A DNA stretch of 64,000 bases, from contig JAGYME010000006.1 of assembly GCA_018400715.1 (NCBI GenBank), positions 611-64,610 of the forward strand. The letters run 5' to 3'. The DNA comes from Candidatus Bipolaricaulota bacterium (GTDB lineage: Bacteria > Bipolaricaulota > Bipolaricaulia > M55B111). Positions 7,099 through 53,973 of the stretch are shown here, in pieces. The notes beneath the pieces are model-generated. The model had not been told where the DNA came from, ran no database searches, and worked only from the letters and a program-made list of their open reading frames with translations. Both the position numbers and the translations under genes were made by a program. Position 1 is the first letter of the stretch. Every line of letters starts with the position of its first letter.

Positions 7099-8015
7099 CT
7101 TTTACGGGATCTCTGTTTATGGCGTGGACCATCGGCGCTGACAGCGCTTCACCATCTTTTGGCCCCGTGGTGTCGTCAAAATCAATGGGCGTATTACGAG
7201 CCAGCCTCCTGGCAGGAATCAGCGCATTTCTGGGAGCAATACTTCAGGGCGGGGGAGTAACGGAAACTTTAAGCAGAGGGTTCGTAAAAGGCGTTACTTT
7301 TGATCCTAAATCAGCAGCCATAATACTCTTGATCTCCTCGTCCTTGATTGCAATCGGTATATGGAAACACTACCCGATGCCAACGGCCTACACCCTGGTC
7401 GGAGCTGTTTTGGGCGGGGGGCTCGGACTGGGAGGGGAGCTGAACGTAAGGCAACTTACGTTTGTCTTTTCCTACTGGTTAATTCTGCCAATTGTGGCGG
7501 GCGTTATCGGTTATTTTACTTCTAAACTGCTACGGGCTAAGGTAGAAAAGAACTCGAAAAACAAGAAAATTCTCAAGCCGATTTTAATAGGAGTCGGGTT
7601 GTATACGGCTTATACGGCCGGAGCCGCCAGTGTCGGCCAGGCGGTTGGCCCCTTGCTGAAAACCACTCCTATAACTATGGGTGCGCTTTTAGGGATCGGG
7701 GGAGTTGGGATCCTTATCGGTTCTGTAACCGGTTCACCAAAGATAATTCATGCCGTAGCCAGGGATTATGCCGATATTGGCCCCAGAAGATCGATATCAG
7801 CACTTGTGGGTACGAGCATTTTGGCCCAGGTTGCGTCTATAATCGGAATTCCAATTTCCTTTAACGCAGCGATACTGGGTGGGGTTATCGGCAGTGGGTT
7901 TGCCACTTCGGAACAGAATGTAAGCTTTAATAAAGTGATCAGAACCGGGGTGAGCTGGGTGGTAAGCTTTCTCCTCGCTTTTGGGCTTGTATATCTGATC
8001 GAACTGGCCATCTAG
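7083..8015 (+). CDS. PiT (inorganic phosphate/sulfate transporter, PHO4) family permease, divergent signature motifs
   Basis: 310-aa polytopic protein with a two-fold internal repeat. GADSASPSFGP (N-half) and GAASVGQAVGP (C-half) occupy the positions of the PiT signature GANDVAN..G. Confidence 0.65.
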   Translation: MLLTLAFTGSLFMAWTIGADSASPSFGPVVSSKSMGVLRASLLAGISAFLGAILQGGGVTETLSRGFVKGVTFDPKSAAIILLISSSLIAIGIWKHYPMPTAYTLVGAVLGGGLGLGGELNVRQLTFVFSYWLILPIVAGVIGYFTSKLLRAKVEKNSKNKKILKPILIGVGLYTAYTAGAASVGQAVGPLLKTTPITMGALLGIGGVGILIGSVTGSPKIIHAVARDYADIGPRRSISALVGTSILAQVASIIGIPISFNAAILGGVIGSGFATSEQNVSFNKVIRTGVSWVVSFLLAFGLVYLIELAI

Positions 8016-8166
8016 ACATGGACCGAGCGAGGCAATAAATAATCCATAACCACAAGTTTTATTACAATATTACTCTGTAAGAGTTCGGAGACTTCATCCC
8101 CCCATAACTTTCCAATTACAGAAAATATTCAACTCTTTGAGGGAATTTCCATCCCGGGCAAAATCA

Positions 8167-9405
8167 CTATTGGCATTCCTCGTAGTAAAGTTGAGCCCCC
8201 GAAATGTCAAACCCGGTGTACACTTCGGACAGGTCGAGTTGCGTCTTTATCGAAGAGTTAAATCTCAACCCGCCGTCCATTTCCATGAGGTCTAACCCCA
8301 CCGAGGTATAGTTCGCGTTACTATTTCTGGCATTACACATCATGTAGGGCGTGCTGTAAACAGAGCTGTAATAATAGAACCCGGACCTGTACCAGTCTTC
8401 CCACCCGGAGGTCCTGAGGGATGGTTTTGACTCTCCGTCCACGTAGACTTCCAAGTCCGCTTCCATGAACGAATCGTTTAATTTTGCATTGACGCATGAG
8501 GAGGTCCAGATTAACCAGCCAGCCTTATCCGACAGGTCCAGTATGGGAAAAGTTGTCCAGTCTGACAGAACCTCCTTTCGGGCAAAGTAGGGGACAACTT
8601 GACCTTTTAGCCTGAAGGGGGCCGTAACACCGTCCCGGTGGGTAACCTGGGAATAAATGTAGCCCGGATGATGCGGATTTGTATTCTGAACCTCTATTCT
8701 GATCCCATCAGAACACGGCATGGGAAAGCTCATCACGACATGTGCTTGCCTTCTATTGGCCCAATTGCTGCCCACTGACATATGCCTGGTGCTGTTCAGC
8801 AGAGGTTTTCCCTTGACGGAGAGGTGAGTTGCCCACAACGTACCAATATCAACCTCGAGATCTGGTTCAGTGGAGCGGTCGGTATAGATCCTCAATAACG
8901 CGTCTCTCCCCATACGTGCCTTGCCGTAGGTAGCCATCCATATCGAGGAAACTATACTCTCGCCGCTAAGGTTAGCCAAGACTCTCGTCTCGCGGGGATT
9001 TACTTTTACGTTCTCGAGGGTTTCCATTCTGGTCTTTTCGTATGGCAACCTGAGGGAGTCGCCAAACTGGGCGATTGACATATTTAATACTTTCTGGCCC
9101 TGAGCGTTAAAAGTCTCGGTCGAAGGGTTGTAACTCAACACTAAATCTTTACTTTTCTCAGTCTTCAGCTCGAACACGCCGTCTTCGGGGATAGAGATAC
9201 CTTCCAGGTTCAACTCATCCGGTAACTCGTAGTCATCTACCCCGGTGCCGCCCTCCCCAGCTTTTCCACTAACGATCCCGAGGGCGGCGGCCCCGGCCGC
9301 TGCAAGCTTAAGTAGATTCCTTCTGGATATTCTCACCGACTCTCTTTCGTCAGGTCCGCTTTCGCTCTCAGTCGATCCCTCTTCTTTCCGATTGGAGTCG
9401 TTCAT
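8167..9405 (-). CDS. Tat-secreted DUF2961 / GH172-like glycoside hydrolase
   Basis: Twin-arginine signal SRRNLLKLAAAGAAALG. Segments LLRIYTDRSTEPDLEVDIGTLW, SFPMPCSDGIRIEVQN and VYVDGESKPSLRTSGWEDWY resemble DUF2961 consensus blocks as I remember them. Confidence 0.55.
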   Translation of the reverse strand: MNDSNRKEEGSTESESGPDERESVRISRRNLLKLAAAGAAALGIVSGKAGEGGTGVDDYELPDELNLEGISIPEDGVFELKTEKSKDLVLSYNPSTETFNAQGQKVLNMSIAQFGDSLRLPYEKTRMETLENVKVNPRETRVLANLSGESIVSSIWMATYGKARMGRDALLRIYTDRSTEPDLEVDIGTLWATHLSVKGKPLLNSTRHMSVGSNWANRRQAHVVMSFPMPCSDGIRIEVQNTNPHHPGYIYSQVTHRDGVTAPFRLKGQVVPYFARKEVLSDWTTFPILDLSDKAGWLIWTSSCVNAKLNDSFMEADLEVYVDGESKPSLRTSGWEDWYRSGFYYYSSVYSTPYMMCNARNSNANYTSVGLDLMEMDGGLRFNSSIKTQLDLSEVYTGFDISGAQLYYEECQ

Positions 9406-9468
9406 TTGATATCACCTTGGTTTGAAAGTACAGGCCCTTCAGTAAAATGTCAACTTTACACCCTGGGA

Positions 9469-11355
9469 TCAATCTGATCGTCGGAAATACACGTATATAT
9501 TGTCTTCGTACTGACCGAACTGACCGAAATTATCCATGGTGAAGTCCAACTTATAATTGTCCTCTATCAGCTGAATTAGATCTTCCCTGGTCCCCGAACT
9601 GGGGTCGTCGTAGATTCCGGTATGCGTGAAGTCCCTGTCGGTGATAACAAGGGCCTTCCCTTCCCGGGAACGAATATATTCCTTAATTATATCGAAGTTC
9701 ACCACGTGAAAGCGTCTTGCTCTTTTCGTACTCCAGTCCGGGTAAAATGAAAATATTCCCATCTCCAACCCGTCTAACAAATCCCGGCGGGCCTCCAGCG
9801 CAAGATAGGCGTGGGTCGTAAAGATTTCCTCCTCACTTGACGTGTTGTCCCGGATAATTTGAGATACTTTGGAGGCTTCTGCCAGTGGAAGCCTGCCGCC
9901 GCTAAGGTTGAAATACCGGGTCCTGGGGTCCAAGAGCCACTGCATGGGCCTCGCCCCCAAGAAGCTGAACAGGAGGAGTCCGATAACCAGGATTGTCAAC
10001 AGGGCCTTTTTATACTCCCAGCTGAGACTCGTCCGCCATTTATCGTAGAGCCAACCGGCAAATATCGCCGCGAGCGGCAAGTTCAAAACGTGATATTCGG
10101 GAAGGGCTGCACCAGGAACGAAGTGGGCCAGAAAAGTGGCCGCAAACGAGGTAAAGATGAACAGCACCCCCCAATAACTCTTGCTCGGCTTTTCGTGAGT
10201 CAGTTGATAGTGGCCGATTTTCGGCAGGATATATAGAGCGATCCCGAGGAGAATAAATGGAATTAAAAATGGGAAGTTTATCAGCAGTTCGAAGAATCCC
10301 CTCATTTTGCCAAAAATCCTCTCTAGGAGGCTCTGGGGTACATATCGGGCCAGATGATAACCGACGATATTAAAATAAGTAGCCCGCGGGTCGAGGAGTA
10401 AAAACGGCAGAAAAAGGACGGTCAACGTTAACCCCGACGCGGTGATCGTCCTGAGGATGTATTGACGGTTTACTATCGCAAGATAGACCAGAAACAAGCC
10501 GAAAACGGGGGCCACCGTCAATCTTGTGCCGACGGCAAGCGCTAAACTTATCCCCGCCAGGGGGTGGTCTATTCGTTTATCACCTTCTCGAAAGAGGAGA
10601 TAGAGGGAGAGAGCAATCAGGGTCGCGGCCATTGAATACGTCTTGGTGATAACCATGAAGTATATTGAAAAGGGATTAACGGCAATCGCAGCCCCCGCCA
10701 GCAGGGAAGCCCTCTCACCGGATATTATCTTTGCCACCGCCATTGTTAGGACCAGAGCGGAGAGACCAAACAAGGACGTCACTATCCTTCCCAGGAGAAG
10801 ACTAGCCCCAAATATCCTTTGAATTAACCCGTAAACGTAAGGCAGAAGAGGGGGCTGAGTATAGGCAAAATCAACGTATGGAATTCTGCCTTCATAGACC
10901 AACTTGCTTGCGTAGAGGTACCAGCCCTCGTCTTCGTTCAATTCCCCCGTAAGAATGTGCAGAATAGCCATAAAGATGAAGAGGGCTATGATACCTAATG
11001 CAAACACACGGTAATGCTCACGGACTGAAGGAAATCTTTTTGCCAGACCCTTACTTTCCTTCCCGATATAGGTAAGTTTATTTAAGATCCAACCGGGGTG
11101 ATGGTACAGATAGAAACTAAACCCCACCAGGAGGACCCCTACCGTACCGGATGCCAGGCGAGCCCGGAAAATGACCCTTAGGGTAACGGCGTCCAGCGAG
11201 TAACTGGCCAACAGGTACTTTTCGACGAAGCCGGCAGAAAATATCAACGAGGCGATAAATATGAGAATGCCAAATACTATCGCCCCGACGGCGGATTTTC
11301 TTACCTTAGACGCTGTCTCCAGGCCCCAGCTTTTATGCACGTTCTTTTGTCTCAT
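9469..11355 (-). CDS. GT-C fold membrane glycosyltransferase (ArnT/PMT family 39/83-like) with C-terminal soluble domain
   Basis: 628 aa with more than 10 TM helices. First-loop motif EDEGWYLYASKLVYEGRIPYVDFAYTQPPLLPY is typical of polyprenyl-phosphate-sugar-dependent GT-C enzymes. Confidence 0.75.
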   Translation of the reverse strand: MRQKNVHKSWGLETASKVRKSAVGAIVFGILIFIASLIFSAGFVEKYLLASYSLDAVTLRVIFRARLASGTVGVLLVGFSFYLYHHPGWILNKLTYIGKESKGLAKRFPSVREHYRVFALGIIALFIFMAILHILTGELNEDEGWYLYASKLVYEGRIPYVDFAYTQPPLLPYVYGLIQRIFGASLLLGRIVTSLFGLSALVLTMAVAKIISGERASLLAGAAIAVNPFSIYFMVITKTYSMAATLIALSLYLLFREGDKRIDHPLAGISLALAVGTRLTVAPVFGLFLVYLAIVNRQYILRTITASGLTLTVLFLPFLLLDPRATYFNIVGYHLARYVPQSLLERIFGKMRGFFELLINFPFLIPFILLGIALYILPKIGHYQLTHEKPSKSYWGVLFIFTSFAATFLAHFVPGAALPEYHVLNLPLAAIFAGWLYDKWRTSLSWEYKKALLTILVIGLLLFSFLGARPMQWLLDPRTRYFNLSGGRLPLAEASKVSQIIRDNTSSEEEIFTTHAYLALEARRDLLDGLEMGIFSFYPDWSTKRARRFHVVNFDIIKEYIRSREGKALVITDRDFTHTGIYDDPSSGTREDLIQLIEDNYKLDFTMDNFGQFGQYEDNIYVYFRRSD

Positions 11356-11426
11356 ATCAGAATTTCGTAGTTTGGGTTAACCTTGTCCCTAGAACTCCCT
11401 TCTTTAACCGGTCACACCAATTTGGG

Positions 11427-12470
11427 TCAAAAGAACAATTTGGCCAAGGACAAAGCCCCCTGCGCCCACGCCGTCCTGTGAGTCCGGCCTATGTCCTCTC
11501 GGTCCCTATCGTATTCCTCCGAATACCACCTATAGGAGTCGATCCACACCTCGGCCGTGGTATAATTCGGTTCCCACCCTAAAACCTCTTGGATTTTATC
11601 CACGGAAACGTAGTGGTCTTTATCGGCCGTTGCGTATACCCACTCGTATAGAGGAGATAAGTTGAGATTCTCCAACAGCTTCAGCCCGGGGATGACTAGC
11701 CAGGAGGGAACCGGCCTCACCCTCTTCCCATAACCGGCATAGTCAAGCAGTTCCTGCAGGTCTTCCTTAATCGAGCCGAACTGGGTAGCGCCGACGTTAA
11801 AGGTGTCGTTGGCTTTTTCCTCTGGTTCCGTTGCCACGAGGTTGATCGCGTCCACCAGGTCTTGCACGTGCAATAACTGGTATTTATTTTCTCCGTCCCC
11901 GATCACGGGGATGTTTTTGCCGCTCTCTACCCAGTCGTTAAGTATGCTAAACACGCCCAGTCGATAGGGCCCGGCAAAGGTCTTTGGCCTCAACACGGGT
12001 ACACAGTGACCTTTTCCCTGGTAATCAAAACAGATTTCTTCCGCCTCAACCTTACTGCTCCCGTACGGCCCGACCCCACTTACGGGGTAGTTTTCGTCCA
12101 CCGGGTGGGTCTCGGGGATGCCATAAACCGACGTTGAAGAAATAAAGATAACCCTATCCACGCCCTGATTGAACGAGGTTTCGAGGAGATGTTCCGTCCC
12201 GTCTACGTTCGTGGAAAATATCTCCTCCTCCGACCACCGGGGCAGGGCAGCTGCGCTGTGCACGACGACGTCGACACCTTCGAGAGAGCCAGTTAACGGG
12301 TCCTTGTCCCTGATATCCCCACGGTAGAAGTGGAACCCCTCGCCCAGGTCAGGGTACTGGAACTCGTGTATATCCAGTCCGTTGACCGTCTTACCTTTCT
12401 CGACTAGATCTTTACTCACGTGATAGCCCAAGAAACCGGAAGCACCGGTAACTAGAAATTTCTCTGGCAT
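11427..12470 (-). CDS. NAD-dependent epimerase/dehydratase (extended SDR)
   Basis: N-terminal VTGASGFLG Rossmann motif and catalytic YGSSK (YxxxK). Confidence 0.85.
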   Translation of the reverse strand: MPEKFLVTGASGFLGYHVSKDLVEKGKTVNGLDIHEFQYPDLGEGFHFYRGDIRDKDPLTGSLEGVDVVVHSAAALPRWSEEEIFSTNVDGTEHLLETSFNQGVDRVIFISSTSVYGIPETHPVDENYPVSGVGPYGSSKVEAEEICFDYQGKGHCVPVLRPKTFAGPYRLGVFSILNDWVESGKNIPVIGDGENKYQLLHVQDLVDAINLVATEPEEKANDTFNVGATQFGSIKEDLQELLDYAGYGKRVRPVPSWLVIPGLKLLENLNLSPLYEWVYATADKDHYVSVDKIQEVLGWEPNYTTAEVWIDSYRWYSEEYDRDREDIGRTHRTAWAQGALSLAKLFF

Positions 12471-12551
12471 ATTACCTCCTGGTTAGGTCAATTAGGCTTT
12501 CATTATCTTAACCTACAAAGGTATCTATTAAAATGGTCCGTTGCGTCTCTC

Positions 12552-13427
12552 TCACCCGGAGTTGAAGAAAATCATTATCATCACTACCGCAATCCCCCAC
12601 AGCAAAATATCTACTACGAGAGGTTTGTCCTTAATCAGGACCTCGCTTAGCTGCCCCTCGTAACCTTTAACCTCTATAAGGTACATGTATCTAAAGGCCC
12701 CGTAAAGTACAAATGGGATGGTCCACAGTATCTGGTCGGAGTGGACCGAGTTAAAGGAATAAAGGGCATAACTGACTATCGTGGCGGTGGTGACAATCAT
12801 TATCAGCTGATTAAGATAGGGCAACGTATAGAGGAAAGCTTCACCTCCTGAATCTCCACCCGCTTTATCGGCCTCGCTAACCTCGGCTTTCCTCTTATTG
12901 AGTGCCAGAAATAGTGCCAGAAACATCGTACTTATTACCAGCCATGGAGAAATATTAACGTCTATCGCGATTGCACCGGCGATTGCTCTCAGCACGAATC
13001 CAAAAGAAATTACTAGCACGTCCATAATTACTACCTCTTCCAGCCAGAAGGAGTAAGCAAGGTTCGCGAAAAGGTACATAAGTATAATTAGGCCCACGTG
13101 AAGGTGGATGAAAAAGCCAGCCACGGCGCTTCCAAGAAAAAGGACGAGGGCGCTGAGACCCGCAACCCTAATTCCCAGCTCGCCGGAGGCAATTGGGCGT
13201 TTCGATTTCACGGGGTGTTTCCGGTCCTCTTCCCGGTCCGCGATGTCATTTATGATGTAGACGCTACCCGCCGCCAGACAGAACATGAAAAAAGTTCCTA
13301 GTGCTATTAAATCTTTGGAAAGATCAAAGAAACTGGTAGAAAAAACTAGCGCCGCAAAGACTACCACGTTCTTTATCCAGTGCTTAGGCCTTAAGGTCTT
13401 AACTAACCCCAGAAAAGTTTTAACCAT
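12552..13427 (-). CDS. UbiA-family prenyltransferase, decaprenyl-phosphate phosphoribosyltransferase-like
   Basis: 291 aa, about 8 TM helices. Motif NDIADREEDRKHPVKSKRPIASGE is characteristic of the DPPR-synthase (Rv3806c-type) subgroup of the UbiA superfamily. Confidence 0.8.
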   Translation of the reverse strand: MVKTFLGLVKTLRPKHWIKNVVVFAALVFSTSFFDLSKDLIALGTFFMFCLAAGSVYIINDIADREEDRKHPVKSKRPIASGELGIRVAGLSALVLFLGSAVAGFFIHLHVGLIILMYLFANLAYSFWLEEVVIMDVLVISFGFVLRAIAGAIAIDVNISPWLVISTMFLALFLALNKRKAEVSEADKAGGDSGGEAFLYTLPYLNQLIMIVTTATIVSYALYSFNSVHSDQILWTIPFVLYGAFRYMYLIEVKGYEGQLSEVLIKDKPLVVDILLWGIAVVMIMIFFNSG

Positions 13428-13463
13428 AATTAGTTGCCAGAGCTCCAGAACAGTGAACCGGAA

Positions 13464-14066
13464 TCATAACCACTTCCCCACCTTTGTCAAGATGTGCCCC
13501 ATTAATGCTCTCATAAAACGCCCTGGTCCCGGACTAAGATTACCGATTTCAAAGCCAAAGTGGGCGTCACTACCGGCAAGTTTCCCCAACCCGTGTTCGT
13601 CAGCGAAACTCATAGCTCTCTCATCAAAAGAGGGGAGCAAACATCGTCCGTTAAATACCTCTAAATAGTCTATTTGCTCAACAATCTCGTACGTATAGGG
13701 ACCCAGGGCACTGCCGCGAAATTTATCGAAAGGGTGAGGTATGTATACCTTTGCTCCCTGTTCTTTGATTTCATCAATTACCTCATGAACCTCGGTCGCT
13801 TTGACTTCCTCAGTTAGGCCCAGGCCAATTATCTCGCCCTTATTGGTGTTTATCTCTGCACCCACGATCACTTCCAAATCGAGGCCCATGGACTCGGCTT
13901 TTTCCTTTGTCACTCTACCGCCACTTATCGTTCCATGGTCCGTTACCGCTATTGTCTTAAGACCTTTCGCTTTCGCCAAAGATATTATCCTCTCTGGTTG
14001 TAAGTGGCCATCAGAAGAATAGGTGGAATGTATATGATAGTCTGCATTATTTCTTTTCAACTCCAT
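13464..14066 (-). CDS. PHP-domain phosphoesterase
   Basis: DYHIHSTYSSDG...VTDHGT...IPHPF...GSDAH metal-ligand pattern of the PHP family. Confidence 0.8.
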   Translation of the reverse strand: MELKRNNADYHIHSTYSSDGHLQPERIISLAKAKGLKTIAVTDHGTISGGRVTKEKAESMGLDLEVIVGAEINTNKGEIIGLGLTEEVKATEVHEVIDEIKEQGAKVYIPHPFDKFRGSALGPYTYEIVEQIDYLEVFNGRCLLPSFDERAMSFADEHGLGKLAGSDAHFGFEIGNLSPGPGRFMRALMGHILTKVGKWL

Positions 14067-14079
14067 AGCTGAAAACCCC

Positions 14080-15066
14080 TCAAGAAAAAGATAGTCCCAA
14101 CTTCTCCCGATTTAACAACAGCGTCGTCAGGCCAATAACGACAGCAAACCAGATCGTGGATAACCGGATCAGTAGGGTCGCGGACACGGCAAACGACTTA
14201 CTTAGTCCTGCCAGCGCTATCATAATTCCAGTCATGCTCCCTTCGGCCACCCCAAGCCCCCCTGGAAGTAGCGATACTGCACCCATCACGGAAGAAAACG
14301 TGAAGATAAAGGTCGAGAGTAATATACTTTGACCCACGTCCAGACCGGAAAAGATCAGGTACATTGCCAGGCATTCCGACCCCCATGACAGCACGCTGAT
14401 GAAGACGCTAAACAGCAGTCGGGGGAGGCGCAGGAGCTTGTATGAACTCTCGTAGAAATTTCGTATTGAGTCCGTGTATCTTTTTATAATGGGTACGTAA
14501 CGACTCCTCTCTATCAACCAGTTCGAAATATTCCTGTTCTGAATCAGTAGTATCAAGACGAGAGCCAAAGCAAAAACTACGACCAGGGCAAATATTCCGT
14601 ACTGAAAATAGATGACTCCGATGGAGGCAAGTAAGGTCACCGCCAGGAGGTCGGTAAACCTCTCGACCATAACAACGGGCATCGTCTCACTAACATCTCT
14701 CCCGGTAAACCTTTTGATAAGGAGCGACTTAAATAATTCTCCTACCTTTCCCGGAGTTATTGCCATTGCTAGACCCCCGAAGAATATTGTAGCGGAGTTA
14801 ACTAAGGAAAGCTCTACCCCTAAAACCTTCAAGAAATAATTCCACTTCACAAAACGCAACAAATCGTCAATAAGCGTTAGGGATAGAATCAGAGGTAAAA
14901 GAATCCAGTTAAATCGCAACAGGGCCGGCCCAACTTTCGAGACGTCGCCATAAAGTACAAGACCTACAAAAACAAAGAAGGCGAGCAGGACCGGGACCAA
15001 AAACTTCTTTCTAAAATTTATTGAATTCTCGGCAACATCCCCGGTTTTGTCCATCTCAGTTACCAC
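14080..15066 (-). CDS. UPF0104 / LPG-synthase-TM (flippase-like) integral membrane protein
   Basis: 328 aa, about 8 TM helices. Overall pattern fits TIGR00374-type proteins often found next to GT and UbiA genes. Recognised by topology and context only. Confidence 0.6.
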   Translation of the reverse strand: MVTEMDKTGDVAENSINFRKKFLVPVLLAFFVFVGLVLYGDVSKVGPALLRFNWILLPLILSLTLIDDLLRFVKWNYFLKVLGVELSLVNSATIFFGGLAMAITPGKVGELFKSLLIKRFTGRDVSETMPVVMVERFTDLLAVTLLASIGVIYFQYGIFALVVVFALALVLILLIQNRNISNWLIERSRYVPIIKRYTDSIRNFYESSYKLLRLPRLLFSVFISVLSWGSECLAMYLIFSGLDVGQSILLSTFIFTFSSVMGAVSLLPGGLGVAEGSMTGIMIALAGLSKSFAVSATLLIRLSTIWFAVVIGLTTLLLNREKLGLSFS

Positions 15067-15189
15067 AACCCCCTCGTTTTTAGGAGAACGAATCCACCTT
15101 AACTATAGATTCCCTTAGAGTTAATAACAATAGGGCCTGACCTTGCATATTGAAGATGAATATTTCGTTTCCTGTCCTTCTCAACGAAA

Positions 15190-15227
15190 GCACCGAAAAA
15201 GGCTCCTAACCGAGCCTTTTTCGGTGC
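15190..15227. promoter_or_regulatory. perfect 16-bp inverted repeat with 6-nt spacer in a divergent intergenic region
   Basis: GCACCGAAAAAGGCTC-ctaacc-GAGCCTTTTTCGGTGC read directly, between the start of the UPF0104 gene (15066) and the activase gene (15568). Confidence 0.5.
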
Positions 15228-15567
15228 ACAGTTTGATTTGATTGTCCGGAACTTGTTGGTTTATGACAAGGATGAGTCCAGCCAAAGAGATAATAAGTTA
15301 ATCCCAATTCAATCGGAAATCGCAAAGGTCTTGGGGTTATTTGAAAAAATCGTATCTACTCGATACATTTGGTGAACAGAAGTAGATTTTACCTGCAATT
15401 CATTGGAACCCGTAAGGTAGGAGCAGATAACTTTTCAGACTACCATGCAATTACCTTGCTCTCGTTCAGTTTGTGTTGATGGTTATTCTCACAATAGTAG
15501 AGTCAATAAATCAAATCAGGGGTTGAGACACTAAGAAGATGAAAATTGGGATTGACAGGGTCTTATC

Positions 15568-16371
15568 GTGTTAACCGGCATAATATTCGACGTCAAGAAA
15601 TACGCCATCCACGACGGTCCCGGTATAAGGACGACGGTTTTCTTCAAGGGATGCCCGCTGAACTGTCAGTGGTGTCATAACCCGGAGTCGGTCGATCCTG
15701 ATCCCGAACCCTCCCTGGATTATAGGGATCCTTTCCGCCTCGACCCCTACGGAGAGGACCACCCCGGGGCGATAGGAGAAGAAGTTGCCGCGGAAGCGGT
15801 TATGGATGAAATCCTGAAAGACAGGATATTTTACGAAGAATCGGGTGGTGGGGTGACGTTCTCCGGAGGAGAGCCCTTGATCCAGCCCGATTTTCTCGCC
15901 TACCTGCTGAAAAAATGTAAACAGGAAGAGATCCATACCGCGGTCGACACCTCCGGATTCGCTCCAAGAGTGACCCTGGAGAAGATAGCTGATTCCGTCG
16001 ACCTATTCTTATTTGACCTGAAATTGGTAGATACGAAGCTCCACGAAGAGTATACCAGTGTCGGAAACGAAAGGATTCTGGATAACCTGAAATTTTTGGA
16101 CGATAACGACCGGGAGGTAGAACTGCGGTTTCCCTTGATTCCCAGTATCACCGACGGTGAAGAAAACGTCGAGGGGATAAAAGGAATTATCGAAGGCGGA
16201 TCCGGTTTTCGTAAAATAAGCATATTGCCCTTTCACGACGTCGAAAAGAAGTATTCCCGGTTAGGGCTGGACTTTTCTCTCGCCGGCCTGGAGCCACCTG
16301 AAGAAAACGAGATAAAGAGAATTAAGGACGAGCTAGAGAAAACTGGTATAATGGTAGAGGTAGGAGGTTAA
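15568..16371 (+). CDS. glycyl-radical enzyme activating enzyme (radical SAM)
   Basis: CPLNCQWC (Cx3Cx2C, C29/C33/C36) follows the GRE-activase N-terminal motif HDGPGIRTTVFFKGC. GGEPL is present. Sits immediately upstream of a GRE. Confidence 0.9.
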   Translation: MLTGIIFDVKKYAIHDGPGIRTTVFFKGCPLNCQWCHNPESVDPDPEPSLDYRDPFRLDPYGEDHPGAIGEEVAAEAVMDEILKDRIFYEESGGGVTFSGGEPLIQPDFLAYLLKKCKQEEIHTAVDTSGFAPRVTLEKIADSVDLFLFDLKLVDTKLHEEYTSVGNERILDNLKFLDDNDREVELRFPLIPSITDGEENVEGIKGIIEGGSGFRKISILPFHDVEKKYSRLGLDFSLAGLEPPEENEIKRIKDELEKTGIMVEVGG

Positions 16372-29630: not shown

Positions 29631-30635
29631 TCAGGTCGTAATCCGGGATAGATCTCCCGATTCGGCCGCCCCGCGGACCTCCCTGGCAATACGCCTTCCC
29701 GTGCTCATGGGCTCGTCGTAATAATAGGGGGAATAGGGCGACCCCTCCGGATAGAGGTTGGTTCCCGCAACTATCCTTCCGGAGACCTCGAAGGTAACGA
29801 ACTCGAGCTGGTCTGTACATATCGTCTCCAGGCAGAACGGACCGAATACCCCTGGTTCGAACAGCTCTTTTGAAGCATCCACCAGGCTCTTTCCCATTTC
29901 GTATAGCTGCGGAAGTAGAGATTCCCTGGCAACCAATGGCTTATTGCCCACGACGACGAAGCTCTTTTCTCCTTTACCCGCGCGGTAGTATTCATCAACG
30001 TTGGATTCATCACGACGGTCTATACCCAGGATTTCCAGCTTCTCATCTACAGGAGAGTAGTAGTAATGGGGATAGTACCTTGTGCCCTCTATCCACTCCT
30101 GTATAGTGTAGTCGTCGCCCGTCCCGGCTATCTTGTCGTGAAAATCCTCTTCAGAATCGACGAGAAAGAAACCCTCCCCGCCTTTCGCTCCGCTGAATTT
30201 AACTATGGCCGTACCATCAATATCCGCCGGGGAGTTGTAGTTTTTCGGCACCCTTATCCCGGCAAGATCGAGCCATTCCCTCTCTCTTTCCCGGTCCGAT
30301 TCCCACTGCAGTGTATACTTATTGCCAAACACCGGGACGTCAAAGTCGGCGAGCAGCCGGTCAGCCCCCACGTATTCGACGAAGGAACCGTGGGGGATAA
30401 TTACGACGTTTTTCTCCTTCAGCTCGGACTGAAATTCCTCGGAGAGAATGTCGGTGTAATCGTCGACGATTAGAAGTTCGTCCGGCCTCGCTTTGGAGAA
30501 GGATTCGTAGAGTTCCACCCTCTCGGGGGCGCAGATTCCAACTGTGGAAAGACCTTCGGTCCGGGCCCCATGAAATATTTGTAGGGCCGAGTGCGAGCAT
30601 ATCGTTCCTATTGCAGGAAGTTCGTTTGGGCTCAT
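29631..30635 (-). CDS. purP: 5-formaminoimidazole-4-carboxamide ribonucleotide (FAICAR) synthetase PurP, paralog 2
   Basis: N-terminal GTICSHSALQIFHGARTEGL..GIC and an ATP-grasp C-half, collinear with archaeal PurP. Confidence 0.85.
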   Translation of the reverse strand: MSPNELPAIGTICSHSALQIFHGARTEGLSTVGICAPERVELYESFSKARPDELLIVDDYTDILSEEFQSELKEKNVVIIPHGSFVEYVGADRLLADFDVPVFGNKYTLQWESDREREREWLDLAGIRVPKNYNSPADIDGTAIVKFSGAKGGEGFFLVDSEEDFHDKIAGTGDDYTIQEWIEGTRYYPHYYYSPVDEKLEILGIDRRDESNVDEYYRAGKGEKSFVVVGNKPLVARESLLPQLYEMGKSLVDASKELFEPGVFGPFCLETICTDQLEFVTFEVSGRIVAGTNLYPEGSPYSPYYYDEPMSTGRRIAREVRGAAESGDLSRITT

Positions 30636-48952: not shown

Positions 48953-50065
48953 TTAATCCTGGCGAGCTAGATTCCCAACTACGGCTAACGACACCAGATA
49001 GCAAGAAAACAGGGCCCAGAACAACATTGGTCTACTCGGGCGACGGTCGTAGATCTTTCCTTGGCCGGGCTCTGGCAACGGCACCGGATCCCAGGACAAG
49101 TTGTACTTAACTGCCAGCTTCTCAAGGTTTAAGATATGAATTATTGGGATATTCTGTGCTGCCAGGGCGTAAATCACACCGCGCTCTCCAGGTCGAGGAA
49201 GACGATTGATTCTATTTATGCCTGGTTTCAGTTGTAAAACCTCGGCGGAGGTGCCCATGTTCGCAACGGCACCACCGATGTTGATAAACACATCAACGCC
49301 ATCCGCCGCTCGTCGTTGGTAAATGTCAATCCGCTTCTCCACATTCTTCTGGAGAATAGGAATATCGAGAAACTCCGCTCTAGAGTTTTCGATCTTTTCT
49401 TCCAGACTGACCCGGACGTCCTCAGTCAGGCTTCTTCCAATATCGTCCCGCCCCCCGAGCGAGGCTGCCGCAACCCCGAAAGGAATTACCCCTTCTTGAT
49501 AGAGTATCTTGTGGATATCCAGGATCGTCAGATCAACTACGTTTGCGCCCCATATGGAGGCCCCCAATGAATAAATTACAATCGGGTTCGCACCGATCTC
49601 GGCAGCCGCACAGAGAGTTGCAACTGTGGCTCCGGGGAAGGAGCCCGAAGCTCCAATTGCCACGTCGTCACCATCTTCAATACCAGATTCGTGCAACAAC
49701 AGGACCATCAGTGCGGCAAAGTTTGGGCTAGTGGTGGTCCTCTTCGCCTCCAGGTCACCCAGGGTCGTCGTCAACTCCGTAAGTTCTCCCCCAATCAATC
49801 CAGTTCGGTTGGGATCTGAAGAAAGGTTAATAGGTATCCCCATTTCTCGTCTGGTCGCGCTGATTACCTGGTTAGCATAACTCATCCGCTCTGCGGCAGA
49901 CACCATACTGTTATACGGTAACTGCTCATTGTTACGGATGGGTAAGCAATTCAACAAAACGATCGCACAGATACTTACGGCGGCCAGGAGGAAAATATAT
50001 TTTCTCGAAACCTTCGCCCCCCGATAAACTGGAACCCCAGGAGCTTTTCGAGAAAAGCCAATCAC
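48953..50065 (-). CDS. membrane-anchored protein, possibly 'poly-gamma-glutamate system protein' family
   Basis: N-terminal TM helix, then ..DPNRTGLIGGELTELTTTLGDLEAKRTT..GASGSFPGA... From memory this resembles the family that co-occurs with PgsB/PgsC (TIGR04332). Unverified. Confidence 0.35.
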   Translation of the reverse strand: MIGFSRKAPGVPVYRGAKVSRKYIFLLAAVSICAIVLLNCLPIRNNEQLPYNSMVSAAERMSYANQVISATRREMGIPINLSSDPNRTGLIGGELTELTTTLGDLEAKRTTTSPNFAALMVLLLHESGIEDGDDVAIGASGSFPGATVATLCAAAEIGANPIVIYSLGASIWGANVVDLTILDIHKILYQEGVIPFGVAAASLGGRDDIGRSLTEDVRVSLEEKIENSRAEFLDIPILQKNVEKRIDIYQRRAADGVDVFINIGGAVANMGTSAEVLQLKPGINRINRLPRPGERGVIYALAAQNIPIIHILNLEKLAVKYNLSWDPVPLPEPGQGKIYDRRPSRPMLFWALFSCYLVSLAVVGNLARQD

Positions 50066-50132
50066 TTAGCTCACCACCATTTTACCCTGTCCAATGACTG
50101 AGGCGAGCGCACTTAGTATCCAAGCTTTCCCC

Positions 50133-51266
50133 TTAAGTCGACGGCTCGTTAAGATAAGAACCCAATCCCTCAGAAAGCAAGGTACTGTAACCGGGGAGAT
50201 CGTCGATCGAGATTGTTCGATCCGGGTGGGTATCGGAGTAGACACTTAGGATCTCCATGATAGTAATAAGATGACGTCCCACCCTCTCTTCTATAGATAT
50301 CCCATCTTCACCATAATGAGTGTAGAGGAGGTCGTTGTTAGCTGCTTTTAGGTAATACTTGTCCTTCCCGTCTAGTACCAGACCGGCATCCGTCTCTCCC
50401 CTCAGCCTCCCTTGACTTGGGTTGGGCGTTTCCAGCAATATCGGATTGGTGTTTGTCCGATTTCCCCACTCCCTGTGGCTTATCCCGAATAAGTTGGCGG
50501 GTGACCTCTCGAGCTTCATATCAATGTCCTCGAACGCCAGGTTCATTTTGGCGAGTGTCGCAAGTTCCATGGACCCTTCGTGAGCGACGATCGCGTTGGT
50601 CACTGGATATTCCGGTGAAGATTCGTGCAAGTCGAAGGAGACGTCCGGATTTTCCCTCTCGATCAAATTCATTATTCCCCTGGCCAGCTTTTCCGTCAGG
50701 TAACCGGAGTCGCTGCCGGGATAACAGCGGTTAAGGTTCCTAATCTCAAAGCCCGCCAGTTGCTGGCCCGATGCATTCACGTACACGTTTGGATCAGGCC
50801 ACTGGTTTATGGGGTTGGTAAGTCGGGAACCAAACCTGAACTCTCTCTCCCCAGATGAAGTCTCGACCCCAAAATACTGTGGTGCACCCTCTAAAGGCTG
50901 GGTATGGGTGAAGGCACTCAGGTTTGTCCTCGGCACCACTATCAACTTTCCGGTTTCTACCCGGGCGTTTTCAACCATGAGAGTTGCCGTGAGAAAGCCG
51001 GCGGGTTCGTTGGGATGGGTACCACCAAGTATCAGGACCGTTCCCCCTGGCTCCTTACCCTTCAATATATAGGCTTTGGGGTCCATTGCCGTACCTTCAA
51101 GGGAGGGCTCGTAGTCACTCAACTGCTTTATCTCTGTCACTCCCCCACCGGGAACGATCTGCTCCGGATTCCACATAGCAACGAACTTTCTCCCGGAGAA
51201 AAACGCAAGGGCAAGTGCCAGCATCAGAAACAGCGACGCCGTGTATTTGTTGCCTCTTATCTTCAT
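50133..51266 (-). CDS. secreted M14-like zinc peptidase (succinylglutamate desuccinylase/aspartoacylase-type)
   Basis: Signal peptide. ILGGTHPNEPAG (HxxE zinc site) and a downstream DLHESS His. Confidence 0.6.
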   Translation of the reverse strand: MKIRGNKYTASLFLMLALALAFFSGRKFVAMWNPEQIVPGGGVTEIKQLSDYEPSLEGTAMDPKAYILKGKEPGGTVLILGGTHPNEPAGFLTATLMVENARVETGKLIVVPRTNLSAFTHTQPLEGAPQYFGVETSSGEREFRFGSRLTNPINQWPDPNVYVNASGQQLAGFEIRNLNRCYPGSDSGYLTEKLARGIMNLIERENPDVSFDLHESSPEYPVTNAIVAHEGSMELATLAKMNLAFEDIDMKLERSPANLFGISHREWGNRTNTNPILLETPNPSQGRLRGETDAGLVLDGKDKYYLKAANNDLLYTHYGEDGISIEERVGRHLITIMEILSVYSDTHPDRTISIDDLPGYSTLLSEGLGSYLNEPST

Positions 51267-51273
51267 CGATCTC

Positions 51274-51417
51274 CTACTTAATCATCAAACTCCGAAGTAG
51301 CAACGGAATGATTACTAAAGCGCCTATTGCCTGTCTGAACAGATCCTCTTCCTTGATGGTATTATAAATCAATATAATCGTGAGAAGAATCGTTAGTATT
51401 CGGTAAATTATCTGCAT
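51274..51417 (-). CDS. small hydrophobic protein (47 aa)
   Basis: Below the ORF-track cutoff. MQIIYRILTILLTIILIYNTIKEEDLFRQAIGALVIIPLLLRSLMIK. GGAG upstream. Fills the gap between the permease and peptidase genes. Confidence 0.4.
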   Translation of the reverse strand: MQIIYRILTILLTIILIYNTIKEEDLFRQAIGALVIIPLLLRSLMIK

Positions 51418-51441
51418 ATTCTCATCTCCACGCACCCAACT

Positions 51442-52698
51442 CTATTGCCACGGGGATAAAATCATAAATATCCCGTACCCGACAGTCAAAAGTCCAGGAA
51501 TAATGCAATACTTCACAATCTTTACATAGTTCTTCTGTTCCACGACCCGGGCGGCGAAAAGACCGGCCAACGCCGTAGGTGGCATAAGGTCACCCAGCCC
51601 AGCAATGAGGGAAAGAGCAGCCGCGGCTAGGATTTGGTTCTGACTCAACAGCGCAAGCATGAATGGCACACCGAGAATTGACGCGGAGCCGTAAGCGGAA
51701 ACCGCGCCGAACAGCGGCATGCTAATGCCAATTGACAGATAGAGATAGCTTGCCGGAAGACCAATCAACATACCAACGACGAAACCTCTTACCCCGGTCA
51801 AAGTCATAATTTGAATAAACATTCCGACCCCTGCCAGTATACCCATGATCGGCAACGCTTCGTTGACGGCTTCACTCACAGTACCCAATACTCCAAACCG
51901 CTTTCCGCTTATCAACGTAATGGAGGCGCTGATGAGGAAGATTAGCGGCATGCCGAGCGACGGTATAGCTTTGGGAAATACCTGCTCGACCACCAGCAAA
52001 ATCAATAAAATGAAGAAAGGGAGATACAGCTTGATCCCATATTTCGGGTAGAACGACTGTGGCAGGTCCATGGCGTCGACGTCAATTTCCGACAGGTGTT
52101 GATAACCGAGGAATAACACAAAAATTATCGCCAGAGGAAAGGTAATCAAAATCAGGGGGACCGAGAAGCCGATGTAAGGCATATCCACGCCCCCACCGAT
52201 GATCATGGCGGGGATGTTCACGGGAGGAGCTATCATGCCAAGGATCCCTGCCATAGCAATAATGGCCCCCGTCTTGTTCCTTGGTATCCCGATGTTCATC
52301 AGAACTGGAGCTACGATTGCCCCGGCAGTCAAAACGGCTACGGTCGAAGATCCAGTTACCATACCGGGAAACATGGCGAAGAACATGAGGACTATCAGCA
52401 ACAGCAGCGGTTGTCGCCTGAACCCTCTGATGATCTGATTTGCCATGGTGCCCAGCAAACCCGAGCGTTGAATCCCCTTCATATAGATCATGGCGGTAGC
52501 TATCACAAGGACCGTGTCGATATATCCAAAAGTTCCCTCGACAATGTGGCGGATCGGAAACCCCGCCCCGCCAACGAAAGCTCCAATAATGGAGGCAATC
52601 ACTAACGACAGCGACACGGGCAACTTGACGACCATTGCCCCGATGATAAAACTCCCGACCATTGCTAAAAAGGTAATCAGTTCTGGCGTGTATGCCAC
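51442..52698 (-). CDS. ion-transporter-superfamily permease, TRAP DctM-like large subunit
   Basis: 418 aa, about 12 TM helices. DctM-like blocks (..TGSSTVAVLTAGAIVAPVL.., ..GILGMIAPPVNIP..). No DctP or DctQ gene seen nearby. Confidence 0.55.
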   Translation of the reverse strand: MAYTPELITFLAMVGSFIIGAMVVKLPVSLSLVIASIIGAFVGGAGFPIRHIVEGTFGYIDTVLVIATAMIYMKGIQRSGLLGTMANQIIRGFRRQPLLLLIVLMFFAMFPGMVTGSSTVAVLTAGAIVAPVLMNIGIPRNKTGAIIAMAGILGMIAPPVNIPAMIIGGGVDMPYIGFSVPLILITFPLAIIFVLFLGYQHLSEIDVDAMDLPQSFYPKYGIKLYLPFFILLILLVVEQVFPKAIPSLGMPLIFLISASITLISGKRFGVLGTVSEAVNEALPIMGILAGVGMFIQIMTLTGVRGFVVGMLIGLPASYLYLSIGISMPLFGAVSAYGSASILGVPFMLALLSQNQILAAAALSLIAGLGDLMPPTALAGLFAARVVEQKNYVKIVKYCIIPGLLTVGYGIFMILSPWQ

Positions 52699-53960: not shown

Positions 53961-53973
53961 GGCTTATCTTATC

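Follow-up and report, generated by a model that had tools for sequence, protein, structure and literature searches.

A six-gene cluster proposed to make and use a polyprenyl-phosphate-linked pentofuranose in an uncultivated bacterium near Bipolaricaulota

Described pentofuranose pathways and the six-gene cluster

A three-component scheme for the use of pentofuranoses in Gram-negative O antigens was described by Kelly et al. 2024 (PMC11127046). The scheme comprises a UbiA-type, PRPP-dependent polyprenyl-phosphate phosphoribosyltransferase with an NDxxDxxxD motif, a dedicated 5'-phosphatase step, a flippase, an optional single GalE-like SDR deciding which pentose is made and a GT-C enzyme that uses the lipid donor extracytoplasmically. 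The Citrobacter youngae O1/O2 loci encode ORF15 (PPPRS-PRP), ORF14 (MATE), ORF13 (SDR epimerase) and ORF12 (GT136), and MATE and SMR are the only flippase types given (PMC11127046). The mycobacterial decaprenyl-phospho-arabinose pathway (Rv3806c, Rv3807c, DprE1/DprE2 and the Emb/Aft GT-C enzymes) likewise proceeds from phosphoribosyl transfer through dephosphorylation and epimerisation to use by a GT-C enzyme, and the lipid A aminoarabinose system (ArnT, ArnC and ArnE/F) also uses a polyprenyl-phosphate-linked pentose outside the cytoplasm. The pathway logic, including the single SDR epimerase, is already published outside Corynebacterineae.

The window, which denotes the whole stretch of 64,000 nucleotides that was analysed, contains six co-directional open reading frames at positions 8167-15066 of the minus strand, all located where a preliminary description of this DNA had placed them:

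14080..15066, minus strand: LPG_synthase_TM / TIGR00374 flippase-like membrane protein, 328 aa
13464..14066, minus strand: PHP-domain phosphoesterase, 200 aa
12552..13427, minus strand: UbiA-family polyprenyl-phosphate 5-phosphoribosyltransferase (PPPRS / DPPR-synthase type), 291 aa
11427..12470, minus strand: extended SDR, GalE-like, 347 aa
9469..11355, minus strand: GT-C glycosyltransferase, ArnT/PMT_2-like, 628 aa
8167..9405, minus strand: Tat-signal GH172 (DUF2961) protein, 412 aa

From the flippase to the GH172 end, the genes are separated by 13, 36, 81, 71 and 63 nt, and each is present as a single copy in the genome. Promoter and terminator scans gave signals no better than chance. The six genes are interpreted as an operon-like unit whose products synthesise a polyprenyl-phosphate-linked pentofuranose and then draw on it as a sugar donor, and as a variant of the systems of Kelly et al. 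2024, a reading to which a probability of roughly 0.72 is assigned. According to homology and the conserved PRPP-binding residues, the UbiA protein would convert PRPP to polyprenyl-P-ribose-5-P, from which the PHP phosphoesterase may remove the 5'-phosphate. The lipid-linked ribofuranose would then be epimerised by the GalE-like SDR via a transient keto intermediate and flipped to the outer leaflet by the LPG_synthase_TM protein. Outside the cytoplasm, the ArnT-fold GT-C would place the sugar on a surface polysaccharide or another envelope acceptor, and the Tat-exported GH172 protein may trim or remodel the alpha-linked furanose.

All components of the 2024 scheme have a counterpart in this proposal, and relatives of the core and of the GT-C were found within polysaccharide loci. 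The departures from it most likely consist of a different phosphatase, a different flippase and a conserved secreted hydrolase: the window phosphatase is a separate PHP protein where the published systems have a HAD PRP domain, an LPG_synthase_TM (MprF-type) protein is the candidate for the flippase, and the cluster includes a GH172 gene. Moreover, the GT-C is ArnT/PMT_2-like whereas that of the published systems belongs to GT136, and a BLASTP comparison of the window protein with the GT-C encoded in an ORF15-type locus of enterobacterial origin found no similarity. With the mycobacterial pathway the cluster shares a homologous first enzyme (E 3e-38), but it lacks a PAP2 phosphatase, and the sugar, arabinose in mycobacteria, is here a candidate Araf, Xylf or other pentose. 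Unlike the aminoarabinose system, the cluster encodes neither an ArnC-type GT2 synthase nor an aminotransferase or formyltransferase, and its donor would derive from PRPP via the UbiA enzyme.

The host is an uncultivated bacterium of a deep lineage near Bipolaricaulota, as indicated by its bacterial 23S rRNA, bacterial-type RpoB and Bipolaricaulota-like relatives. The family assignments in the preliminary description were borne out for the six proteins by the profile scores given below, and the suggested logic of phosphoribosyl transfer, phosphatase, GT-C and GH172 is supported. By contrast, its archaeal-looking host had to be abandoned, and the data do not support a restriction of this logic to Corynebacterineae, arabinofuranose as default sugar or a fixed six-gene unit.

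The SDR and the identity of the sugar

The 347-aa protein was recognized by the Epimerase profile (PF01370) with 142 bits, contains the motifs TGxxGxxG (T8-G15) and YxxxK (Y136-K140), and has GalE-type epimerases and dehydratases as top solved relatives. Orthologues with 81-93% identity come after the UbiA gene in the loci L001, L166 and L176. A search across the host genome found no DprE1-type oxidase, which agrees with the earlier proposal that one extended SDR takes the place of DprE1/E2, the FAD oxidase and classical SDR reductase of mycobacteria. The protein is probably an NAD-dependent epimerase acting on lipid-linked ribofuranose at C2 or C3.

The clues to the sugar are in conflict, with the single-SDR precedent pointing to Xylf and the GH172 association to Araf. 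The only characterised single-SDR epimerase of the three-component systems, C. youngae O2 ORF13, makes Xylf, and the known Araf systems have DprE1/E2 homologues (PMC11127046); Araf is therefore not the default sugar. Epimerisation at C2 to D-Araf is given slightly less than even odds, epimerisation at C3 to D-Xylf a little under one chance in three, and the absence of epimerisation, or another change, is given about one chance in four.

If the SDR were a C3 epimerase like ORF13 in an otherwise unchanged pathway, the donor would be polyprenyl-P-D-xylofuranose and the GH172 protein would either have a new specificity, as an alpha-D-xylofuranosidase, or be unmatched to the sugar. This is a tentative possibility, to which the matching GalE-type motifs of the window SDR and the divergence of the GH172 protein lend weight in addition to the ORF13 precedent; the Trp equivalent to W267 of alphaFFase1 is replaced by Ser/Phe. 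It is opposed by the substrates of the characterised GH172 enzymes, which are alpha-D-Araf or alpha-D-Fruf in all cases (PMC10509167, PMC8605356), and by the linkage of a window-type GH172 gene to the cluster in five loci.

The GT-C glycosyltransferase and the GH172 hydrolase

The 628-aa GT-C was matched by PMT_2 (PF13231) with 37 bits, and its AlphaFold model (pLDDT 85.6, pTM 0.85) shows a predicted ArnT-type fold. A Foldseek search with this model returned ArnT 5f15 as top hit (E 2.6e-8), followed in order by ALG9/ALG12, STT3/AglB/PglB and the mycobacterial enzymes AftB, AftA and AftD. D142 and E143 of the first outer loop (NEDEGWY) are unchanged throughout 24 homologues, and a C-terminal soluble domain comprises residues ~480-628. 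Orthologues are present within PPPRS clusters (L164, L187 and L192), a homologue with 38% identity is located in a Wzz/Wzy polysaccharide locus (L189), and the GT-C gene of one relative genome stands apart from the core (L185). The enzyme probably moves the pentofuranose from the lipid donor onto a surface glycan, an acceptor proposed because relatives sit in Wzx/Wzy and ABC-type polysaccharide loci.

The 412-aa protein scored 68 bits with DUF2961/GH172 (PF11175; cut-off 27) and 21.5 bits with TIGR01409, a model for Tat signals (cut-off 16.7); the twin-arginine motif is S27-R28-R29-N-L-L-K. Its top solved relatives are the GH172 enzymes 8ah3, 8ic8 (an exo-alpha-D-arabinofuranosidase) and 4kq7, and by family it is a retaining furanosidase. 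The predicted acid/base E315 and nucleophile E336 together with D337 correspond to E270/E291/D292 of alphaFFase1 (PMC8605356), and the Glu pair aligns with E242/E264 of Dg67 (bioRxiv 10.64898/2026.08.13.744632). This Glu-Glu pair and the neighbouring Asp, which are equally spaced in ExoMA1 8ic8, the DgGH172 enzymes and alphaFFase1, are unchanged in the three orthologues. The window protein is distant from these enzymes (E 1e-8 to 3e-10 by profile) and differs from them in its Tat signal, in ~80 extra N-terminal residues, in Tyr344, which replaces Asn253 of ExoMA1 and Gly299 of alphaFFase1, and in the location of its gene within a putatively biosynthetic rather than a catabolic cluster.

Within this lineage the GH172 gene is always the final gene of the cluster, in clusters of the SDR type as well as the DUF362 type: it follows the SDR gene in L166 and L176 and the GT-C gene in L187, L192 and the window. 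This GH172 subfamily is very rare, and intact copies were found only in these clusters save two distant relatives of 36% identity; its constant position at the end of such clusters was newly recognized in this analysis. A secreted nutrient-scavenging furanosidase outside the pathway, kept as a neighbour by inherited synteny in one lineage, would fit with the limitation of the association to Bipolaricaulota-type genomes, the distant PPPRS clusters devoid of GH172 (L165, L169, L170, L002, L044 and L061) and the mostly catabolic loci of known GH172 genes. This explanation is unlikely in view of the retention of the 3'-end position through rearrangements, the rarity of the subfamily, the absence of neighbouring sugar-uptake or catabolic genes and the presence of the gene in a split locus whose UbiA and SDR genes were deleted.

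The conserved core and the UbiA-type enzyme

The flippase-PHP-UbiA core is present in several lineages and was detected again in L164, L165, L166/L167, L176 and L192. L169 (UbiA-PHP-flippase-DUF362-GT-C) and L170 have a rearranged order; in L170, an N-terminal fragment of a PRPP synthetase adjoins UbiA. L192 displays the six-gene order of the window, with five genes at 59-75% identity and a DUF362 gene in the SDR slot, an arrangement first reported here. The fourth slot is occupied by either a window-type SDR or a LarA-fold DUF362 protein, and the position of the GT-C varies between the clusters of relatives. In one MAG, the locus L187 has kept flippase, PHP, GT-C and GH172 genes along with 40 codons of UbiA and has lost the SDR, whereas L001 has kept UbiA and SDR and lost the other genes; these complementary losses leave every function intact exactly once, although all genomes compared are MAGs and the split could stem from a chimeric bin. 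The cluster is modular, consisting of a conserved core and exchangeable parts; the preliminary description was correct in that UbiA is accompanied in several genomes by linked PHP, flippase-like, GT-C and GH172 genes, but not as a fixed six-gene unit.

The composition of the fourth slot also bears on whether the SDR and DUF362 proteins act elsewhere, the SDR making a nucleotide sugar that goes into the acceptor glycan, or reducing another substrate, so that the donor remains polyprenyl-P-ribofuranose. Extended SDRs are frequent in polysaccharide loci, extended SDR genes lie away from the core in L170 and L189, and Ribf-only systems are known, as in C. youngae O1 (PMC11127046). Nevertheless, all close relatives have the SDR or DUF362 gene directly after UbiA, SDR-type clusters nest within DUF362-type ones in the UbiA tree, and the window cluster contains no nucleotide-sugar glycosyltransferase, which renders this explanation quite improbable.

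In the proposed pathway, the core proteins adjoining UbiA would supply the phosphatase and flippase steps. The 328-aa protein was matched by LPG_synthase_TM (PF03706, 156 bits) and TIGR00374 (101 bits) and has about 8 hydrophobic segments; its orthologues are located directly 5' of PHP-UbiA in L164, L165, L166, L176, L187 and L192, and in another order in L169 and L170. Its family, which includes the MprF flippase domain, and its context suggest a flippase for the polyprenyl-phosphate-pentofuranose donor. The 200-aa protein was matched by PHP (PF02811, 52 bits), PHP_C (28 bits) and NCBIfam models including 3',5'-nucleoside bisphosphate phosphatase and RNase RNM, and its closest solved relatives, 3e0f, 7ug9 (5'-3' exoribonuclease) and 2yb1, are PHP phosphoesterases with ribose-phosphate substrates. 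Its gene adjoins UbiA in all close relatives as well as in L169 and L170, and the protein is probably the 5'-phosphatase converting polyprenyl-P-ribose-5-P to polyprenyl-P-ribofuranose. To our knowledge, neither PHP nor LPG_synthase_TM proteins have ever been demonstrated to act on polyprenyl-linked sugars.

The UbiA protein contains NDIADREEDRKHPVKSKRPIASGE with the motif N60-D61-x2-D64-x3-D68, and its top solved relative is Rv3806c (8j8j, E 3e-38). Eight of the 12 PRPP/Mg residues of Rv3806c are identical (R13, K19, Y57, N60, D64, K74, R77 and Y125), two are conservatively exchanged (Q135 to N122 and Y157 to F144) and two, of the pyrophosphate site, are altered (K143 to E130 and K208 to G195). 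The phosphoribose-site residues, reported in the Rv3806c paper to be non-conserved across other UbiA enzymes, are retained as K19, Y57, N122 and F144. Of the DPPR-synthase models, NF008978, which carries the NCBI curated cut-off for decaprenyl-phosphate phosphoribosyltransferase, was passed (213.8 bits, cut-off 207), whereas the score for NF008977 was below the cut-off (230.1 bits, cut-off 234). Among 14 control genomes, NF008978 exceeded its cut-off in Corynebacterium glutamicum only. These comparisons support a PRPP-type phosphoribosyltransferase, and an ordinary quinone, heme O or archaeal-lipid prenyltransferase in a cluster unrelated to PRPP is highly improbable: the Pfam match reaches the general UbiA family only (82 bits) and homologues in Anaerolineae adjoin isoprenoid genes, but heme O, UbiA and GGGP-type models scored <=35 bits, and both the specificity of the DPPR-synthase model and the retained phosphoribose site oppose such a role. 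The Anaerolineae homologues, with 40-46% identity, are located beside mevalonate-pathway kinases and apart from any partner gene of the cluster, so that the UbiA subfamily may differ in function internally.

Gene content of the cluster and affiliation of its host

The cluster consists of six genes on the minus strand of the window, found at exactly the coordinates assigned to them in the preliminary description, and searches against Pfam and NCBIfam bore out all of the family assignments made there. Each of the six genes is present as a single copy in the assembly, and neighbouring genes are separated by gaps of 13, 36, 81, 71 and 63 nt.

Genes of the cluster with profile matches
14080-15066, minus strand: flippase-like protein; LPG_synthase_TM 156 bits, TIGR00374 101 bits
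13464-14066, minus strand: phosphoesterase; PHP 52 bits, PHP_C 28 bits
12552-13427, minus strand: UbiA enzyme; UbiA 82 bits, NF008978 213.8 bits by hmmscan (cut-off 207), NF008977 230.1 bits (cut-off 234)
11427-12470, minus strand: extended SDR; Epimerase (PF01370) 142 bits
9469-11355, minus strand: GT-C glycosyltransferase; PMT_2 37 bits
8167-9405, minus strand: GH172 protein; DUF2961/GH172 PF11175 68.4 bits (cut-off 27), Tat signal TIGR01409 21.5 bits (cut-off 16.7)

The region from 7900 to 15700 gave no match to Rfam, and a scan for promoters and terminators yielded counts that were not higher than those of shuffled controls. The terminator scan caught, on the minus strand, a perfect 16-bp inverted repeat (window 15190-15227), which lies in the divergent region of 500 nt preceding the cluster and likewise had no match in Rfam.

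With respect to the host, the genome had been called archaeal-looking, but the organism is a bacterium. Its bin (2.19 Mb, 88% complete; all loci compared here derive from metagenome bins) contains a bacterial 23S rRNA gene with spacer genes for tRNA-Ile and tRNA-Ala ahead of it and a bacterial-type RpoB in two pieces on two contigs (646 and 412 bits), and a search of the bin for ribosomal protein S8e, which is present in archaea, found no match. The closest RpoB relatives belong to metagenome-assembled genomes (MAGs) labelled Bipolaricaulota or 'Thermotogae' and are only 53-55% identical, all others being about 40% identical. An independent bin with a syntenic contig is likewise labelled 'Thermotogae', and the sources name the relatives of the cluster proteins Bipolaricaulota or Acetothermia. 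The host lineage branches deeply, close to Bipolaricaulota. The archaeal-looking remark may have been prompted by PurP, a FAICAR synthase that depends on formate and is typical of archaea, encoded at window 29631-30635 on the minus strand (388 bits to NF009781, under its cut-off). Since the bacterial rRNA and RpoB, the Bipolaricaulota-type relatives and the result for S8e outweigh this archaeal-type gene, an archaeal origin is ruled out.

Predicted activities of the encoded proteins

The UbiA protein belongs to the DPPR-synthase type, as had been proposed, and does not cluster with quinone, heme or lipid prenyltransferases: it exceeds the cut-off of NF008978 also in the genome search (212.6 bits), and models of heme O synthase, 4-hydroxybenzoate prenyltransferase and GGGP-type enzymes reach at most 35 bits. 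Besides the window's genome, this cut-off was passed in one of 14 control genomes, namely that of Corynebacterium glutamicum. The motif NDxxDxxxD is present (N60-D61-D64-D68), and the best solved relative is the mycobacterial homologue Rv3806c (8j8j, E 3e-38). The ligand residues of PRPP-bound Rv3806c (PMC10994848) were mapped through an alignment of both proteins, which revealed that ten of the twelve are identical or conservatively replaced. Identical residues (Rv3806c to window) are R22 to R13, K28 to K19, Y70 to Y57, N73 to N60, D77 to D64, K87 to K74, R90 to R77 and Y138 to Y125; Q135 to N122 and Y157 to F144 are conservative, the latter being Phe in some mycobacteria too, and K143 to E130 and K208 to G195 differ. 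Other UbiA enzymes lack conservation at the phosphoribose-site residues K28, Y70, Q135 and Y157 (PMC10994848), and retention of this site in the aligned sequence argues for PRPP as the substrate of the putative polyprenyl-phosphate 5-phosphoribosyltransferase (PPPRS).

Homologues from Anaerolineae are 40-46% identical to the UbiA protein, and tblastn seeds for the known cluster partners found none of them near most of these genes. At one such locus (L006:9935-12655, an Anaerolineae MAG), genes for a GHMP kinase and a member of the amino-acid-kinase family come after a UbiA homologue with 45% identity; Pfam examination placed these mevalonate-pathway kinases next to the UbiA homologue and found no glycosylation partners nearby. 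The Anaerolineae branch may therefore do something else, and its partnerless loci call for caution in assigning a function to the whole UbiA subfamily.

The closest solved relatives of the PHP protein are 3e0f, 7ug9 (5'-3' exoribonuclease) and 2yb1, that is, metal-dependent, ribose-phosphate phosphoesterases. The six cluster proteins contain no HAD domain according to Pfam and NCBIfam and no PAP2 match of the Rv3807c type, in agreement with the earlier suggestion that a PHP phosphatase stands in place of PAP2. We infer that the PHP phosphoesterase, encoded next to the UbiA gene, would catalyze the step of the HAD-type phosphoribose phosphatase. The LPG_synthase_TM/TIGR00374 gene is the sole transporter-like gene of the cluster, which encodes no MATE or SMR flippase.

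The SDR shows the motifs VTGASGFLG (residues 7-15; TGxxGxxG), S111-S112 and Y136-G-S-S-K140 (YxxxK), and among proteins of solved structure it is closest to GalE-like epimerases and dehydratases. A membrane-anchoring amphipathic tail was unsupported (hydrophobic moment 0.44). In line with the view that a single SDR replaces DprE1/DprE2, no DprE1-type oxidase was found in the 88% complete genome, in which neither a tblastn search with a DprE1-like seed nor a search for the ALO domain gave a hit; the only DprE2-like tblastn hit was a generic SDR with 25% identity on a different contig.

The AlphaFold model of the GT-C protein (pLDDT 85.6, pTM 0.85) was matched by Foldseek to ArnT (E 2.6e-8), followed by ALG9/ALG12, oligosaccharyltransferases, AftB, AftA and AftD, all of which use polyprenyl-phosphate-linked donors. 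The first outer loop contains D142-E143, which do not vary among 24 homologues. The model shows a GT-C fold, and the protein is a putative user of a lipid donor.

The 412-aa protein had been assigned to DUF2961/GH172, and this assignment was secured by PF11175 as well as by the precomputed annotation (PF28588 and PF11175) and the best solved relatives 8ah3, 8ic8 (ExoMA1) and 4kq7, all of them GH172 enzymes. In alignments, residues E315 (acid/base), E336 (nucleophile) and D337 occupy the catalytic positions of ExoMA1, DgGH172c and alphaFFase1; in the latter, the corresponding residues are E270, E291 and the essential D292 (PMC8605356), and the catalytic Glu pair of Dg67 is E242 and E264 (bioRxiv 10.64898/2026.08.13.744632). 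The two Glu residues of the family, about 21-22 positions apart and with an adjacent Asp, are accordingly found here, and E315, E336 and D337 are invariant in the GH172 orthologues together with an SRRxLLK motif. On this basis the enzyme looks active. Fructofuranosides are an unlikely substrate, because the equivalent of W267 in alphaFFase1 is Ser/Phe and Tyr344 occupies the position of Gly299 in alphaFFase1 and of Asn253 in ExoMA1, which blocks fructofuranose in the latter enzyme.

The GH172 subfamily is rare, a word-limited search of 5.8 billion proteins having returned seven members, and scans of the species-level genome collection for more distant relatives detected only two GH172 loci and ten SDR loci. 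Each intact GH172 member of the Bipolaricaulota type forms the end of a PPPRS cluster. Polyprenyl-phosphate-beta-D-pentofuranose donors and an inverting GT-C give alpha linkages, which represent the anomer cleaved by GH172. The closest GH172 relative outside Bipolaricaulota (L191:1-13995, JGI 3300017482) is 36% identical and lies on a contig with many small unannotated ORFs and a gene block with a Lectin_C_term protein that is duplicated in inverted orientation; this contig may be a viral or mobile element.

Conservation of the cluster and exchange of its fourth gene

Conservation of the cluster as a unit holds for the flippase-PHP-UbiA core, the other parts being exchangeable.

Arrangement of the cluster genes in the window and at related loci of other genomes
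Complete order in the window: flippase-PHP-UbiA-SDR-GT-C-GH172
Core flippase-PHP-UbiA, UbiA 62-67% identical to that of the window: L164, L165, L166/L167, L176, L192
Window-type SDR next after UbiA: L001, L166, L176
DUF362 next after UbiA: L002, L164, L165, L192, L044 (Nitrospirae), L061 (Chlorobiaceae)
UbiA-PHP-flippase-DUF362-GT-C: L169 (more distant, also DUF362-type)
Core within an ABC-transporter polysaccharide locus, PRPP-synthetase N-terminal fragment adjoining UbiA: L170
GT-C elsewhere in that one genome: L185
GT-C homologue (38%) within a Wzz/Wzy locus: L189 (Zixibacteria)
GH172 after GT-C: window, L187/L188, L192
GH172 after SDR: L166/L167, L176
GH172 as truncated remnant near the cluster: L164

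The fragment at L170 (5870-6151) is a 93-aa ORF directly after UbiA that matches the N-terminal domain of PRPP synthetase only; it is a remnant or else a small partner connected with PRPP.

The six-gene order of the window recurs in Bipolaricaulota GCA_048621815 (L192:1617-8228; flippase 75%, PHP 66%, UbiA 62%, GT-C 59% and GH172 61% identical), with a DUF362 gene of the LarA clan instead of the SDR gene in fourth position. In the UbiA tree, the SDR-type clusters group as a single clade (support 84/94), itself nested within a well-supported clade (100/99) that also holds DUF362-type clusters, and further DUF362-type clusters lie outside. This nesting suggests that DUF362 was most likely replaced in place by the SDR.

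DUF362 belongs to the same Pfam clan as LarA, the nickel-pincer lactate racemase (PMC11770544). The six best matches of a model of the DUF362 protein of L164 (pLDDT 81.7) were LarA-family structures, although the TM-scores were modest (0.31-0.41). The nickel-pincer cofactor is made by LarC, which was found in each of the three DUF362-type genomes examined and in six of 14 controls and is absent from the window's genome; these counts are small. Hydride shuttling is the means by which both LarA enzymes and SDRs of the GalE type invert a secondary alcohol, and by virtue of this common chemistry the exchange supports an assignment of the fourth gene as a putative epimerase of the lipid-linked sugar. 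The large DUF362 family would thereby gain a concrete and testable function.

Moreover, the MAG GCA_964614065 carries two damaged cluster loci. In L001 (445-3501), the DNA of which is 86% identical to the window, a deletion fuses flippase and PHP genes, UbiA and SDR are intact, and GT-C and GH172 are absent. In L187 (3322-8383), which is 68% identical and was seen again in an independent assembly (L188), flippase, PHP, GT-C and GH172 are intact, UbiA is reduced to its first 40 codons, and the SDR gene is missing. Both loci together provide one intact copy of each of the six functions, the pattern expected if all six genes work together. It could have arisen by reciprocal loss after duplication or from a chimeric bin mixing two strains.

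A minimal set of a PMT-type GT-C, UbiA and a small EamA protein was noted at L168 (GCA_964579945), named 'Methanocorpusculum sp.' by its source. The contig also carries SspH, an SLT lytic transglycosylase and BipA and is thus Firmicute-like, and an error in binning or naming probably accounts for the archaeal label.

Relation to known pentofuranose systems and the candidate sugars

Lipid-linked pentofuranose donors have long been held to be special to mycobacteria and their relatives, in which the pathway is a drug target. The preliminary interpretation of the cluster in these terms is partly supported: its lipid-linked pentofuranose logic was right but not new, as a precedent exists outside Corynebacterineae. 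In the O antigens of the Gram-negative Citrobacter youngae, alpha-pentofuranose side chains are added outside the cytoplasm by a set of proteins comprising a MATE flippase, a GT-C (GT136) and a polyprenyl phosphoribose synthase of the UbiA type to which a HAD phosphatase is fused, and an optional single GalE-like SDR (ORF13) converts the ribofuranose donor to xylofuranose (Kelly et al. 2024, PMC11127046). Both systems share a UbiA-type PPPRS with PRPP-site residues and an enzyme with GT-C fold, whereas the PHP phosphatase, the LPG_synthase_TM flippase and the associated hydrolase are unreported in that study, whose survey found HAD phosphatases throughout and DprE1/DprE2 homologues in arabinofuranose-making systems and whose supplement lists MATE and SMR transporters only (PMC11127046). 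The cluster differs from the mycobacterial decaprenyl-phospho-arabinose pathway in the lack of PAP2 and in the lack of a DprE1-type match in the genome. A literature search retrieved no later description of a variant with PHP, LPG_synthase_TM and hydrolase, and the cluster appears to be a further variant of the pentofuranose glycosylation system.

An ORF15-type gene, that is, a HAD-UbiA fusion, was present in one of 351 enterobacterial genomes, and no match to ORF13 turned up in E. coli genomes searched at the DNA level. The single locus (L175:2263-10367, Enterobacteriaceae genome G034) is of the DprE1/E2 type: DprE1-like and DprE2-like genes come after the HAD-UbiA gene, along with a gene for a 792-aa membrane protein with no match in Pfam, an additional extended SDR gene and an amine oxidase gene, and the system thus has candidate epimerases of two kinds. 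This additional SDR shares only 23% identity with the SDR of the window, and BLASTP detected no similarity between the window's GT-C and the 792-aa GT-C, a candidate GT136 enzyme.

The clues to the sugar conflict, the single-SDR precedent pointing to xylofuranose and the GH172 association to arabinofuranose. The latter clue follows from the fact that all characterised GH172 enzymes act on alpha-D-arabinofuranosides or the related alpha-D-fructofuranosides (PMC10509167, PMC8605356); since no DprE1-type oxidase was found in the genome, arabinofuranose would require a one-enzyme 2-epimerase. Weighing both, we consider arabinofuranose the foremost candidate, with somewhat less than even prospects; xylofuranose ranks second as a less likely alternative, and unmodified ribofuranose or another derivative comes only a little behind it.

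The joint reading, to which we assign a probability of roughly one in four, is that the Bipolaricaulota lineage makes a surface glycan carrying alpha-D-arabinofuranose independently of DprE1/DprE2. A single enzyme would epimerize lipid-linked ribose at C2, namely the GalE-like SDR here and DUF362, a protein of LarA fold possibly using the nickel-pincer cofactor, in sister genomes, and the Tat-exported GH172 from the same operon would serve as a dedicated alpha-D-arabinofuranosidase that trims or remodels the glycan. If true, this would constitute a self-contained system for making and trimming a D-arabinofuranosyl glycan outside Actinobacteria, with two single proteins, not homologous to each other, that can each replace the drug-target pair DprE1/E2, and D-arabinan-type chemistry and the enzymes degrading it would be commoner in nature than assumed. 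The cluster would carry the pentofuranose scheme into a deep, uncultivated bacterial lineage and suggests a third, non-homologous phosphatase solution (PHP) as well as a third, MprF-like type of flippase. Its parts are tied together by the in-place exchange of SDR and DUF362 and by the two damaged loci with one intact copy per gene, and the conserved GH172 offers a direct handle on the identity of the sugar.

Additionally, a second envelope-polymer locus was observed on the contig of the window (48953-58676), encoding PgsB (233 bits), a poly-gamma-glutamate system protein (312 bits) and a gamma-glutamyltransferase.
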